64,000 nucleotides of DNA from assembly GCA_937900695.1 (NCBI GenBank), contig CALCFD010000051.1, positions 1,953-65,952 on the forward strand. The letters run 5' to 3'. Position numbers and translations under genes: made by a program. The notes below the pieces were generated by a model, which did not search any database, had not been told where the DNA came from, and saw only the letters and a list, made by a program, of their open reading frames with translations. Below, piece after piece: positions 4,341 through 48,248 of the stretch. The DNA is from an uncultured Eubacterium sp. GTDB taxonomy: Bacteria; Bacillota; Clostridia; Peptostreptococcales; Anaerovoracaceae. The first letter of the stretch is position 1. Each line of letters begins with the position of its first letter.

Positions 4341-5259
4341 ATGAAACTTGCAGACCTAAAAGGTAAAAAATTTGACAAACTTCTTGTTTTAGGTATCGAC
4401 GAAAACAACAAGTATAATGCTAGTGGTAAAATTCAGTGGAAATGTTAGTGCGACTGTGGCAATATAGTATATAAAACTTCTGATTACTTTTCTCGTAAAA
4501 CACAGTCATTAAAGGCTTGTAGCAAGCGTTGTGGCAGTTCAATACCTGAAGGAACTGTTTTTGGTAGATTGACAGTTCTAAAACTTGTAGTAGACGAAAA
4601 AGGTCATTCAAATTATTTATGTAAATGCAAGTGTGGAAATGAAGTTGTTGTCGCCGGAAATAAGTTAAAAAATGGAACAACAAAAAGTTGTGGCTGCTAC
4701 AGAAAAGAAAAAATGCAACAATTAGGCTCTTCTGGAATGAATGATATTACAAACCAACGTTTTGGGAAATTAGTAGCATTAGAACCAACAGATAAAAGAT
4801 AGAATAAATCTGTTATTTGGAAATGTAAATGTGATTGCGGTAATATTCATTATGCCTCATAGCATAATTTAAAGAACGGAGATGTAACAAGATGTAATGA
4901 CTGTAAAATAAAATCTAAAGGCGAAGAGAAAATAGTATAGTTATTGCAAGAAAATGGCATCTCTTTTGAAAGAGAAAAAACCTTTGAATCATGTAGGAAT
5001 CCTAAAACTAACAAGTTATTAAGATTTGACTTTTATGTAAACAATTCATATTTGATAGAATTTGATAGTAAACAACACTATTCTGATACACTTTTCTTTA
5101 GCGAAAATTTCAGTTTAGCTGATTAGTAGTATAGAGACAAATATAAGGAATGGTGGTGTAAAGAAAACAATATACCATTAATTCGCATACCATACACAAT
5201 ACTCGATATCCTGTCTTTTAAAGACATTGATATAAATAATAGTAAATTTATTTTAAGAT
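4341..5259 (+). CDS. Homing-endonuclease-like paralog: three Zn-ribbon repeats (W-x-C-x-C-D/E-C-G-N ... SCGC) plus C-terminal restriction-endonuclease-like domain (RFDF..IEFDxxQH..RIPY); read through multiple in-frame TAGs
   Basis: Frame-3 continuity across ORFs 4569..4802 and 4944..5126. TAG 4446-4448 falls inside the WKC-Q-CDCGN motif. Paralogs at 28104, 35694, 39403 and 63965. Confidence 0.55.
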
Positions 5260-5277
5260 AAAAAGGAGAAAAATACA

Positions 5278-17318: not shown

Positions 17319-17395
17319 GGGCGAGTAGCTTACGCGGTCGGAGCGCTGGTCTGAAAAACCAGAGGATGGTGGTTCGACACCACTCTCGCCCACCA
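17319..17395 (+). tRNA. tRNA-Phe (GAA)
   Basis: Acceptor gggcgag/ctcgccc, anticodon stem ctggt/accag, loop ctgaaaa, A73, CCA encoded. Confidence 0.65.
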
Positions 17396-17499
17396 GCCGA
17401 GAAATCGGCAAACTATCTTTTCTATTTTTTTACAAGACCCTCTATGGTTATAGAGTCTAGAGTTCGATTCTTTCTGCAATAGATAGAGGGTCGCTATAT

Positions 17500-17830
17500 G
17501 GGGATGCGTAGGTTCGACGGGGTAATGAGAAACTAGGATACACGGGTAGGCATACCGCCTTAAGGAGCAACAAAATTAAACGACAACGATTATTTTTCTA
17601 ATAACATCGCAGCTTGAGCATAGCTCGCTGTTTTAATCCCTTGGATTTCTCTATTTTCCTTTAATTAAATAGAGTGGTGGAGGCAGAGTACAACTGGTAC
17701 TGCTCTATGGTTATTAGTAGTTTCAGCTAAAACTCCATTTATAAAAGTTTAAAGTGAAACTATCGTGTAATAATATTCTAGTTATGTAGTTATTTCGGAC
17801 ACGGAGTGCGACTCTCCGTCATCTCCACCA
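17500..17830 (+). ncRNA. ssrA: tmRNA (SsrA) with tag-peptide reading frame
   Basis: 5' end ggggatgcgtaggttcgacgggg matches the tmRNA 5' consensus (GGGG..GGAUUCGACGGG). 3' end ggacacggagtgcgactctccgtcatctccacca forms a T-arm-like stem plus acceptor with G3-U70 and CCA. Internal frame gca aca aaa tta aac gac aac gat tat ttt tct aat aac atc gca gct tga at 17567-17617 encodes ATKLNDNDYFSNNIAA. Confidence 0.7.
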
Positions 17831-17916
17831 AGAGTTTCTTTCTTCTCTTAAAAAGAAAGTGGTGGATAATCGAAACCCAATTCGGCTCCATATATAACAT
17901 ATGTGGAGGAATTAAT

Positions 17917-18315
17917 ATGACAGAATTAGAAAGAGGATATTTGGCTGGCATTATTGATGGTGAGGGAAGTATTACTCTCACCAAGGATAAATAGTTTAGG
18001 TATCCAGTATTAGAAGTGTCTAGTACAACATCTCAAATTGTAGAATATCTTAAAGAGCATTTTGGAGGAGTTATTTCCAAGAAAAATGAGCGTAATCCAA
18101 AATGGAAACAGGCTTATATTTGGAAGATAGAGCGGAGAAAGGCTATTTCTTTGTTAGAAGAGATTGTCAGTTATCTTAATGAACCAAAGAAAAAAGCTAG
18201 AGCTTAGTTAATAATTAAAGACTATATACGCTTAACTCCTAGAAATGGGAGATATTCTGAAGAAATAAAATAGCAAAAACTTAAATTTGAAGAAGAATTT
18301 TTCAAGATAGAATAA
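17917..18315 (+). CDS. LAGLIDADG homing endonuclease (single-motif type), TAG-containing
   Basis: MTELERGYLAGIIDGEGSITL, with RBS ggagga. In-frame TAGs joined in the same frame as ORF 18016..18207. Confidence 0.7.
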
Positions 18316-18342
18316 TTTACATAACAAGAGGAAAGGAAGTTT

Positions 18343-18798
18343 ATGATGGAGATTGAAAGAAAGTGGATTCTTCAAAGAGTTCCAACAGAGTTTCGATTAG
18401 TTAGAAATGCTCAGGTAGAGCAATTCTACGTTTCAACAAGTCCTGAAGTGCGCTTGAGGCACAATCCCGCAAGCAACGAGCCTTTTAGAATTACAATTAA
18501 GGGCGAAGGAACTCTATCAAGAGAAGAGATTGAAACAAAGATTTCTGAAAACTTCTATAATCAAGTCAAAGAGTTCGTGAATAAAACTCCGATTAAGAAA
18601 GATTATTCTATCTTTAATTGCGGCGGGTATCCACTCGCGGTTTCTGTAGTAGACGATGGAGCTTTTATCTACGCAGAGGCCGAATTCGAATCGGAAGAGC
18701 AGGCCCGCGACTTCCAACTTCCTATTGATGATGCAATCGAAATAACTGAAAATACAGATTATAAGATGAAGAATTATTGGTTACGCACTCGTAACTAA
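18343..18798 (+). CDS. CYTH-domain protein (triphosphate tunnel metalloenzyme / CyaB-like)
   Basis: N-terminal MMEIERKWIL matches the CYTH E-x-E-x-K signature. 151 aa, no TAG. Confidence 0.5.
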   Translation: MMEIERKWILQRVPTEFRLVRNAQVEQFYVSTSPEVRLRHNPASNEPFRITIKGEGTLSREEIETKISENFYNQVKEFVNKTPIKKDYSIFNCGGYPLAVSVVDDGAFIYAEAEFESEEQARDFQLPIDDAIEITENTDYKMKNYWLRTRN

Positions 18799-20314: not shown

Positions 20315-20430
20315 GGGGAGTTAGCTCAGTTGGTAGAGCGCGTTATAGTTGGGTCTTGACAAAGACCATAACAGCAATCGTACTTTGCTTAGGGTGCACG
20401 ATGTCACAGGTTCGAGTCCTGTACTCCCCG
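20315..20430 (+). tRNA. Aberrant tRNA gene with ~40 nt of extra structured sequence between D-arm and T-arm; identity unresolved
   Basis: Canonical acceptor ggggagt/actcccc, D-arm tagctcagttggtagagc and T-arm acagg-ttcgagt-cctgt enclose 66 nt. These include a 33-nt hairpin gttat..ataac and a 17-nt hairpin agcaa-tcgtact-ttgct. Confidence 0.4.
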
Positions 20431-46839: not shown

Positions 46840-46844
46840 AAATG

Positions 46845-48017
46845 ACTAACGCACAAATTATTTGGGAATATTTTAAGAATAAAGGCTTTAGTAATTGCGG
46901 GATCGCAGGCTTAATGGGAAATCTTTATGCAGAAAGCGGTCTCATTCCAACAAATTTATAGAACTCGTATGAAAAAAAATTAAAAATGACTGACTCTGAA
47001 TATACTTATGCAGTAGATAGCAAAAGATATAAAAACTTTATAAAAGATGGAGCAGGATATGGGTTGGCGTAGTGGACATTTTGGACTAGAAAACAAAATC
47101 TTCTTTAGTTCTGTCAAAATAAAGGTAAGTCTATTGGAGATTTAAATACACAATTAGATTTTTTATATTAGGAGTTAATTACAAATTATCCTAATTTAGT
47201 TCAAATCTTAAAAACTGCCACTTCTGTTGAAGTGGCATCTACTGCTGTACTACTTTAGTTTGAACGACCGGCTGATCAAAGCTTTGCAGTTCAACAAAGA
47301 AGAACTAATTATGGCCAATAGTATTATAATAAATTTGTTAATACTTTAAATATAGTTGAAGGAGGTAATAAAATGAAATACAACAATAGCAATAAACCAC
47401 TTCAATGCATGATGACAAATAGTACCTGTTATAAACAAACTCGTACAATGTAGATTAAGGGAATTTTATGGCATAGTACAGGTGCAAATAACCCTAATTT
47501 AAAAAGATATGTCTAGCCTAGTGAAAACGATCCTAATTATAATAAGTTAATAAATAAATTAGGAAAAAATACTAGTGGAAATGATTGGAACCATATCTCT
47601 CATTAGGCTGGTTTAAACTGCTGGATTGGGAAACTTGCAGATGGAACAGTAACAACTGTTCAAACCATGCCCTGGAATTATAGACCTTGGGGATGTGGAT
47701 CAGGCTCTAAAGGCTCTTGCAATAATGGATGGATCTAGTTTGAAATTTGTGAAGATAATCTAAACAATGCAGATTATTTTAACAAGGTATATGAAGAAGC
47801 TTGCTAGATTACAGCTTATTTATGTAAAATGTATAATATTAACCCTTTAGGAACTACTACTTTAAATGGTATTAAAGTTCCTACTATTTTATGTCATGCA
47901 GATAGTCATAAACTTGGTTTAGGCTCTAATCATGGAGATGTAAATCATTGGTTTCCAAAATTTGGAAAAAGCATGGAAACAGCGAGAAAAGATGTCTATA
48001 ACTTAATGACAATTTAG
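46845..48017 (+). CDS. Endolysin: N-terminal lysozyme-like (phage tail-lysozyme type) domain plus C-terminal N-acetylmuramoyl-L-alanine amidase domain; possibly two genes with an internal start at 47373
   Basis: CGIAGLMGNLYAESGL..GYGLA-Q-WT, then ..GILWHSTGANNP..ILCHADSH..GDVNHWF. Frame 3 stays open across multiple TAGs. An internal GGAGG RBS precedes ATG 47373. Confidence 0.55.
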
Positions 48018-48032
48018 GAGGATGATGAAGAT

Positions 48033-48248
48033 ATGACTGATGAAAAATTTGCTGAACTTATGAATAATTGGCTAACAAATAAAGCTAATGAAAAAGAAAC
48101 TTGGGGCTCTGATAATCTTAAATGGGCAAACGATAATGGGATTATGGCAGGAGATGCTGCTGGTAGAATGATGCCTAATAAGTTTTGTACTAGACTTGAA
48201 ACAATAACTATGCTAAGAAGATTAGCTGAAAAGTTGGGATTAAAATGA
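48033..48248 (+). CDS. Hypothetical small protein
   Basis: 71-aa ORF. Confidence 0.35.
   Translation: MTDEKFAELMNNWLTNKANEKETWGSDNLKWANDNGIMAGDAAGRMMPNKFCTRLETITMLRRLAEKLGLK

Follow-up and report, generated by a model that had tools for sequence, protein, structure and literature searches.

Transfer-messenger RNAs (tmRNAs), and the protein SmpB, have been reported from large phages, the tmRNAs having been found with ARAGORN (Al-Shayeb et al., 2020; PMC7162821). The tmRNA of phage G, likewise found with ARAGORN, is 308 nucleotides (nt) long and carries the non-canonical tag AKLNITNNELQVA (PMC12484599). In phage T4, segB lies in the tRNA cluster, and its endonuclease drives the preferential inheritance of the tRNA region (PMC2330249). 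Here we describe a tmRNA gene at positions 17500-17830 of a 64,000-nt stretch of DNA deposited as an uncultured Eubacterium sp. (assembly GCA_937900695.1, contig CALCFD010000051.1, positions 1,953 to 65,952 of the forward strand), a stretch that we call the window. The gene is a divergent member of the already known class of phage tmRNAs. A phage-borne one-piece tmRNA with a role in trans-translation is the best explanation of the locus and, in our judgement, a probable one.

A one-piece tmRNA gene in two alleles

A sequence-only reading of the window had proposed a phage-encoded tmRNA at these positions and named the covariance models to be run. A scan of the whole window against Rfam gave a full-length match to the tmRNA model RF00023, spanning model positions 1-374 at exactly 17500-17830 (69.9 bits, E = 3.6e-25) and above the gathering score of 47 bits. 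The 5' tmRNA motif singled out by that reading, GGGGATGCGTAGGTTCGACGGGG, is present at 17500-17522, and every part of the proposed 3' end was found: a T-arm-like stem, an acceptor stem with G3·U70, and a CCA ending at 17830. The gene and its tRNA-like domain have the following parts.

17500-17830, + strand: one-piece tmRNA (ssrA-like) gene, 331 nt, CCA encoded (Rfam RF00023)
17500-17506, + strand: 5' strand GGGGAUG of the acceptor stem P1, 7 base pairs (bp) with 17820-17826, including G3·U70 (sequence)
17820-17830, + strand: 3' strand CAUCUCC of P1, then the discriminator A (A73) and CCA (sequence, RF00023 alignment)
17507-17518, + strand: D-loop analogue CGUAGGUUCGAC, aligned to the Rfam consensus AucuGGaUUCGAC
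17801-17819, + strand: T arm, with 6-bp stem ACGGAG/CUCCGU and loop UGCGACU (alignment to type B, described below, and to the Rfam consensus)

Through to its last base, 17830, the 3' end has the sequence GGAC-A-CGGAG-TGCGACT-CTCCG-T-CATCTCC-ACCA. The model for two-piece (permuted) tmRNAs, RF04321, gave only partial matches, scoring 43.1 and 22.5 bits where gathering requires 47, and these sub-gathering scores, together with the colinear one-piece gene, ruled out a permuted two-piece tmRNA.

Relatives were found by DNA-pattern scans of IMG/VR and of metagenomes and by a search with the neighbouring phrog_6660 open reading frame (ORF). By one count the tmRNA gene recurs in seven further contigs, and by another it occurs in ten relative contigs, four from IMG/VR and six from the metagenome scan, under several record prefixes. 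Type A, the window's own type (331 nt), is found in loci L001, L002, L019, L022, L023 and L024, which differ from the window at seven positions altogether, L024 being identical to it. Type B (321 nt) has one and the same sequence in L005, L006 and L016 and shares ~70-75% identity with type A. Both types match RF00023 at full length and above gathering, with 69.9-72.4 bits in type A relatives and 76.8 bits in type B, and all seven P1 pairs are kept in type B, where A5-U is replaced by C-G. No third tmRNA sequence type was found across the IMG/VR and metagenome scans. Three DNA-pattern scans of IMG/VR returned only four contigs, all from one metagenome, and the metagenome scan added six more loci, its five further hits being chance matches. 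Nothing among 50,697 phage records matched the locus in a blastn search, and loci L007-L012, which hold more distant relatives of the phrog_6660 ORF, have no tmRNA within 4 kb of it. A scan with the type B 3' end returned only 3' tmRNA fragments. Three IMG/VR loci (L026, L027 and L028) carry just the final ~25-40 nt of a tmRNA, identical to the type B 3' end; these fragments look like attachment sites rather than tmRNA genes.

The tag reading frame

The sequence-only reading had taken the whole frame 17567-17617 as a 16-codon tag, ATKLNDNDYFSNNIAA. The letters are as it gave them and the frame ends GCA GCT TGA, but only part of that frame is the tag, which has 11 codons starting from GAC 17582, in the same frame and with the same C-terminus.

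17582-17617, + strand: tag ORF GAC...GCU UGA, encoding DNDYFSNNIAA and a stop (ARAGORN on a U17819-deleted variant, Rfam alignment, type B)
17576-17581, + strand: upstream determinant UUAAAC; its U(-5) and A(-4), counted back from the resume codon, are identical in types A and B

We adopted the shorter tag because of the Rfam alignment, the ARAGORN call on the variant, and an in-frame stop in type B. In both alleles, the consensus resume triplet of the alignment falls on GAC 17582, and its posterior probability there is high. On the U17819-deleted sequence, ARAGORN gives attaaacgacaacgatta as the resume consensus and DNDYFSNNIAA* as the tag. Type B has a 3-nt insertion that produces a UAA in the longer frame, four codons upstream of GAC (GCG ACU UAA AAA UUA ACU GAC). 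The two alleles have AAAAUUAA in common upstream of GAC, and we take U(-5) and A(-4) to correspond to U85 and A86 of E. coli.

The type B tag, DEDYFENYLAA, is read in the same frame, with UUU/UUC and GCA/GCU differences that are synonymous, and the pattern D-x-D-Y-F-x-N-x-(I/L)-A-A-UGA is kept between the alleles. In both, the UGA stop (17615-17617 in type A) sits inside the hairpin P5. The proposed likeness to degradation tags holds for the shortened tag, whose C-terminus is ...IAA in type A and ...LAA in type B, as in ordinary tags.

Conserved helices and the pseudoknot region

We placed a helix set of 72 pairs on five distinct tmRNA sequences. In tmRNA numbering (to which 17499 is added to obtain the window coordinate), the helices are P1 (1-7/321-327), P2a (19-27/290-298), P2b (32-40/276-284), P2c (41-45/265-269), P5 (111-131), P6 (150-157/168-175), Hc (178-183/204-209), Hd (218-226/256-264 and 231-235/247-251) and the T arm (302-307/315-320). 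Between the two strands of the acceptor stem lie the following elements.

17518-17544, + strand: 5' strands of the connector helix P2 (P2a 17518-17526, P2b 17531-17539, P2c 17540-17544)
17547-17562, + strand: short hairpin UAGG/CUUA at the usual position of pseudoknot PK1, the sole helix of this region common to both alleles
17610-17630, + strand: P5 hairpin enclosing the stop codon (minimum free energy (MFE) fold; a shorter hairpin at the same place in type B)
17649-17674, + strand: P6-like hairpin CUCUAUUU/AAAUAGAG in the usual PK2 region (8 pairs, 2 of them double-changed in type B)
17677-17708, + strand: hairpin Hc (MFE fold; type B support weak)
17717-17763, + strand: long 3' hairpin Hd in the usual PK3/PK4 region (14 pairs, 5 of them double-changed in type B)
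17764-17797, + strand: 3' strands of P2 (P2c 17764-17768, P2b 17775-17783, P2a 17789-17797)

Pairing holds in 97.2% of cells over the 72 pairs, 14 of which have changed on both sides between the alleles, all covariation counts coming from one comparison, that of type A with type B, the only two diverged types. In slid controls 41-46% of cells were paired, with 0-2 double changes, and the observed values were reached in none of 500 shuffles. Two polymorphisms within type A retain pairing by turning G·U into A-U, G38A in P2 and G180A in Hc; the polymorphism G189A breaks both alternative pairings.

The sequence-only reading had made its case depend on a conserved P2 and the pseudoknots PK1-PK4. 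The first of these is clearly present, with covariation: P2 has 23 pairs, double changes in 5 of them, and 95.6-100% of cells paired. The canonical pseudoknots could not be shown. Downstream of the tag lie three hairpins, P6, Hc and Hd, with covariation in P6 and Hd, and the candidate pseudoknot partner stems there are 3-5 bp long and do not keep their register between the alleles. Manual and enumerative searches of both alleles, made with tools that do not predict pseudoknots, found no conserved partner stems. Hairpins are all that can be demonstrated of the pseudoknot domain, which looks reduced.

A six-base-pair T stem

The canonical tmRNA T arm has a 5-bp stem and a UUCRANU loop, and U55 of the T loop is near-invariant. 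The type B T arm is fully canonical. Relative to type B, to the Rfam consensus and to E. coli tmRNA, the type A stem has one added nucleotide on each side, A17801 and U17819, which are complementary. With the 7-bp acceptor, the 6-bp T stem of type A makes a 13-bp acceptor/T stack. The comparison of type A with type B shows one compensated pair in the T arm, G-C to A-U.

The 6-bp-T-stem pattern GGAC-N6-TTCRANT-N9-CTCCACCA, scanned against 185,579 species represented by one genome apiece, matched at least 120 bacterial species representatives, mostly Chloroflexota among the matches listed (classes Dehalococcoidia, Chloroflexia, Limnocylindria and Ktedonobacteria). All 120 matches listed have six perfect T-stem pairs at a spacing fixed by the pattern. 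Seven of eight tested loci are tmRNAs by Rfam (132-182 bits), and the same seven were called by ARAGORN; tags ending AIAA, and one starting with Asp, occur among these ARAGORN-called tmRNAs. Since the 6-bp T stem occurs in bacterial tmRNAs supported by Rfam and ARAGORN, the extra pair can be regarded as a natural variant, presumably functional, rather than as a defect.

Phage setting and TAG recoding

The claim that the tmRNA is phage-encoded is supported by phage-type replication genes, a phage tail lysozyme, and related viral contigs in IMG/VR. All genes of the window lie on the + strand, and its G+C content is ~35%. The replication module comprises a Sak4-like annealing protein, a DnaB-type helicase, a primase and a DNA ligase; an RNA ligase is also present, as are genes for GyrA and GyrB. 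No capsid or terminase gene was identified within the window. The best phage-database protein matches are to the uncultured huge phages LR756500, LR756501 and LR756503, with genomes of 462-735 kb, and the close relatives are IMG/VR viral contigs. Since the longest contigs of the relatives group at 142-150 kb, one of them being a scaffold of 147,091 bp, the genome of this lineage is probably ~147 kb and not above 200 kb, the huge-phage limit.

This phage reads TAG as a sense codon, in a code-15-like manner. Allowing TAG readthrough lifts + strand ORF coverage from 0.60 to 0.78, and the readthrough ORFs contain 125 in-frame TAGs and terminate at TAA (75) or TGA (15). TAG-rich ORFs lie at 46842-48248 (12 TAG), 55337-56245 (15 TAG) and 57639-58301 (9 TAG). 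The lysozyme/amidase (lysin), with 12 TAGs, has full-length Pfam matches, and domain matches span TAGs in the lysin, a PhoH/PIN protein, three GIY-YIG endonucleases and a LAGLIDADG ORF. Database proteins are 99% identical to the lysin translated with Gln at TAG, and their genes are untranslatable under the standard code. The window encodes a suppressor tRNA for this codon, and the tRNA array to which the tmRNA belongs has its nearest member just upstream of it.

26916-26990, + strand: suppressor tRNA, anticodon CUA, reading TAG (ARAGORN; Rfam tRNA 59.3 bits)
17319-17395, + strand: tRNA-Phe(GAA), the array member nearest to the tmRNA (ARAGORN, Rfam)

The suppressor has U1·U72 and G73, as read from its sequence, which we take to be Gln-like, and we infer Gln as the amino acid inserted at TAG. 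TAG density varies among the genes: the homing endonuclease genes and the lysin are especially rich, and the replication genes have few or none.

The tmRNA lies within an array of 28 tRNAs (9.5-28 kb, all + strand). Rfam also places a 116-nt tRNA at 20315-20430 (49.4 bits), with an apparent ~45-nt insert after the D arm; it is uncalled by ARAGORN and is conserved in L005, L006, L019 and L023. A ROOL RNA (RF03087, 350-360 bits) lies ~2.9 kb downstream of the tmRNA in two relatives (L019 8823-9418 and L023 11064-11660), and none matched at gathering score in the window. Other genes of the window include an adjacent vault-like pair that is unusual for a phage, at 28878-30383 (a DUF2828/DUF7788 protein) and 30786-33215 (809 amino acids, with Vault_3 repeats and the shoulder domain of the major vault protein), a gene at 42245-43771 for an SPFH/flotillin-like protein, and genes for three paralogous Cys-rich repeat proteins (4341-5261, 28104-28841 and 39403-40113), with a weak DUF2726 match only for 28104-28841.

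Homing endonucleases and a probable mobile cassette

Two homing endonuclease genes and a structured element accompany the tmRNA in the window.

17917-18315, + strand: free-standing single-motif LAGLIDADG homing endonuclease gene, 132 codons, 3 in-frame TAG
16455-17216, + strand: upstream GIY-YIG homing endonuclease gene, 4 in-frame TAG (PF01541)
17436-17493, + strand: upstream structured element, a 10-bp outer stem round a T-arm-like hairpin (-21.9 kcal/mol, z = -3.4)

The LAGLIDADG gene had been read correctly from the letters as starting 87 nt downstream of the tmRNA: its ATG is at 17917, and it matches PF14528 (26.1 bits) and PF00961 (25.9 bits), both above their cut-offs and spanning the TAG at 17992. 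A group I intron around this gene was rejected, Rfam giving no intron hits at E <= 10. Type B loci have no LAGLIDADG gene and have tRNA-Lys(CTT) in its place. That tRNA begins 5 nt after the tmRNA, and the window has no tRNA-Lys(CTT). At the other end of type B, a GIY-YIG ORF (PF01541; L005 2830-3611) overlaps the 5' end of the tmRNA with its last 33 nt. The GIY-YIG gene upstream of the tmRNA in the window is missing at that position in L019. The window as a whole is dense in selfish or repeated genes, with three GIY-YIG genes (16455-17216, 55337-56245 and 57639-58301) besides the LAGLIDADG gene and the Cys-rich paralogues. The structured element stops 6 nt before the tmRNA 5' end; the type A loci keep it and type B lacks it. 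It was considered as a tRNA and rejected, having no Rfam family match.

A block from ~17434 to 18400, holding the upstream hairpin, the tmRNA, the spacer and the LAGLIDADG gene, differs by ~1% among type A relatives, compared with 7-18% in the flanks, and L024 is identical to the window across the block and diverged beyond it. The difference in divergence suggests recent spread: a ~1-kb cassette of hairpin, tmRNA and LAGLIDADG gene appears to have passed among related phages by recombination, probably driven by endonuclease gene conversion (homing). The two alleles thus sit in different surroundings, type A with the hairpin, an extra-pair tmRNA with G at position 55, and the LAGLIDADG gene, and type B with a canonical tmRNA whose start is overlapped by a GIY-YIG gene, and with tRNA-Lys(CTT). 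A tentative idea, which we hold to be possible though unlikely, is that these are competing cassettes in which each endonuclease cuts the rival tmRNA allele, and that type A owes its odd tRNA-like domain to an immunity change constrained to preserve tmRNA function.

Proposed function and rival explanations

Homology, conserved structure and the conserved tag frame together make a function in trans-translation likely. Charging, SmpB use and tagging would follow bacterial trans-translation, to which the gene is homologous. Host tRNA-processing enzymes would excise the RNA from the tRNA-array transcript, and alanyl-tRNA synthetase would charge it with alanine by way of G3·U70 and A73. Together with SmpB and EF-Tu, the tmRNA would enter ribosomes stalled on broken or stop-less mRNAs, the SmpB presumably being the host's or encoded elsewhere in the phage genome, as there is none in the window. 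The ribosome would then switch to the internal frame at GAC 17582, add Ala-DNDYFSNNIAA, and terminate at UGA, a stop codon still used by the TAG-recoded phage. It would thereby be released, and the hydrophobic ...IAA end would mark the product for proteolysis. The setting, with 28 tRNAs, a TAG-suppressor tRNA and an RNA ligase, makes a translation-maintenance role, keeping ribosomes available during infection, the most likely one. A private tmRNA may matter particularly to a TAG-recoded phage, whose ribosomes could stall at TAG when the suppressor tRNA is limiting.

Several observations weigh against a functional tmRNA. ARAGORN, run on the window as the sequence-only reading had advised, reported 28 tRNAs and no tmRNA, and the type B tmRNA likewise went uncalled. 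In silico deletion of U17819 restores the tmRNA call, and changing G55 to U alone does not. The extra T-stem pair was nevertheless rejected as the cause of the miss, because ARAGORN calls bacterial tmRNAs with 6-bp T stems, and we ascribe the miss to cumulative divergence. The RF00023 score of ~70 bits compares with 130-180 bits for typical bacterial tmRNAs, and the alignment is unreliable (low posterior probability) across the pseudoknot region in both alleles. In type A, G17808 occupies T-loop position 55. Of the E. coli pseudoknots, PK1 is the one considered important, and manual and enumerative searches found no second PK1 stem in either of the two sequence types. The reliance of the covariation on a single pair of types counts here as well. 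The low divergence of the type A tmRNA was rejected as a sign of purifying selection, since the whole cassette, endonuclease gene included, is equally conserved and its recent spread would explain this. Lastly, tblastn with E. coli SmpB found no match in the window or the fetched loci; the query was confirmed by PF01668 (194 bits) and by 100% identity to IMG/VR records. A scan of IMG/VR with the same query found only enterobacterial prophage ends and was uninformative. As to the pseudoknots, PK2-PK4 are dispensable in vitro in E. coli (reviewed in PMC3985003), so a reduced pseudoknot domain does not exclude function.

Of the other explanations, the one that survives best, although we think it unlikely, is that the tmRNA is mainly cargo or target of the homing endonucleases, its odd sequence, with the extra T-stem pair, G55 and 25-30% divergence from type B, reflecting selection to resist cleavage by the endonucleases next to it, and the RNA itself being perhaps only weakly functional. 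A homing endonuclease gene abuts both alleles (the LAGLIDADG gene 87 nt downstream in one, the 33-nt GIY-YIG overlap in the other), and the ~1% divergence of the type A block inside genomes whose flanks diverge by 7-18% speaks for this reading too. The tmRNA is, moreover, less alike between the alleles (~70% identity) than the neighbouring phrog_6660 ORF (84%), and T4 SegB offers a precedent in a tRNA cluster (PMC2330249). Yet the 14 compensated double changes and the kept tag frame point to the RNA itself as the object of selection, many bacterial tmRNAs normally have a 6-bp T stem, and no cleavage site is known; a history as cargo is also compatible with a functional tmRNA.

It is far less probable that the RNA is a decoy or inhibitor that binds host SmpB, alanyl-tRNA synthetase or EF-Tu without completing trans-translation, thereby blocking host rescue or shielding phage proteins. 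The G55 T loop, the reduced pseudoknot domain without an evident PK1, and the lack of SmpB in the window would all suit such a role, but type B combines the same architecture with a canonical T arm, and the tag ORF with its stop, superfluous in a decoy, has been conserved and shows synonymous changes, the tag ending in ...IAA or ...LAA like ordinary degradation tags. A functionless decaying pseudogene or relic of host DNA, such as an attachment-site fragment, is the least probable of all: it would fit the low covariance score, the negative ARAGORN result and the attachment-site-like 3' fragments of L026-L028, but the gene extends over its whole length, from the 5' end through the tag region to the 3' CCA, it is present in ten relative contigs, and 97% of pairs survive between its two diverged alleles, with compensation on both sides in 14. 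A functional phage tmRNA remains our preferred explanation.

Comparison with known systems

The phage RNA leaves the understanding of trans-translation unchanged; there are phage tmRNAs and 6-bp T stems already. With bacterial one-piece tmRNAs (SsrA, as in E. coli) it shares G3·U70, A73, the CCA, the D-loop analogue GGUUCGAC, a T arm and a long P2, an A-rich leader with U(-5)A(-4), a short ORF ending (I/L)AA, and a stop in the P5 hairpin. It differs from bacterial SsrA in its length (331 nt against ~363), its resume codon (GAC, for Asp, against GCA), its 6-bp T stem and its G55; it has no evident second stem of PK1 and a pseudoknot domain reduced, as far as shown, to hairpins, and its gene is borne by a phage and has no smpB beside it. 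The combination of a G55 T loop with a reduced pseudoknot domain makes this family a natural experiment.

The tmRNAs with 6-bp T stems, mostly Chloroflexota among those listed, have in common with it the extra pair at the foot of the T stem, the layout GGAC-N6-loop-N6-N3-CUCCACCA and the 13-bp acceptor/T stack, and some of their tags end AIAA and one starts with D. They differ in being chromosomal, in scoring 132-182 bits, in having a canonical UUCRANU loop and in being called by ARAGORN, and their sequence relationship to the phage tmRNA is shown at the family level only.

Like the tmRNAs of huge phages and megaphages, this one is phage-encoded and stands amid a large tRNA set and other translation genes, and the tmRNA of phage G is likewise short. 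Unlike them, the present family is missed by ARAGORN, belongs to a lineage with genomes of apparently ~147 kb rather than >200 kb, and occurs where TAG is a sense codon and homing endonuclease genes flank the tmRNA. The TAG-recoded phage group that carries it is abundant, its lysin alone having thousands of metagenomic relatives, and since ARAGORN is the standard route of phage annotation, surveys of phage ribosome-rescue genes undercount.

With T4 segB, finally, the locus shares a free-standing homing endonuclease gene within a phage stable-RNA array and a pattern consistent with co-conversion of neighbours. It differs in that the endonuclease is of the LAGLIDADG family (GIY-YIG in type B), the neighbour is a tmRNA, and the association is known here from sequence alone; at that level it offers a clear case in which a stable-RNA gene and a homing endonuclease gene travel together.

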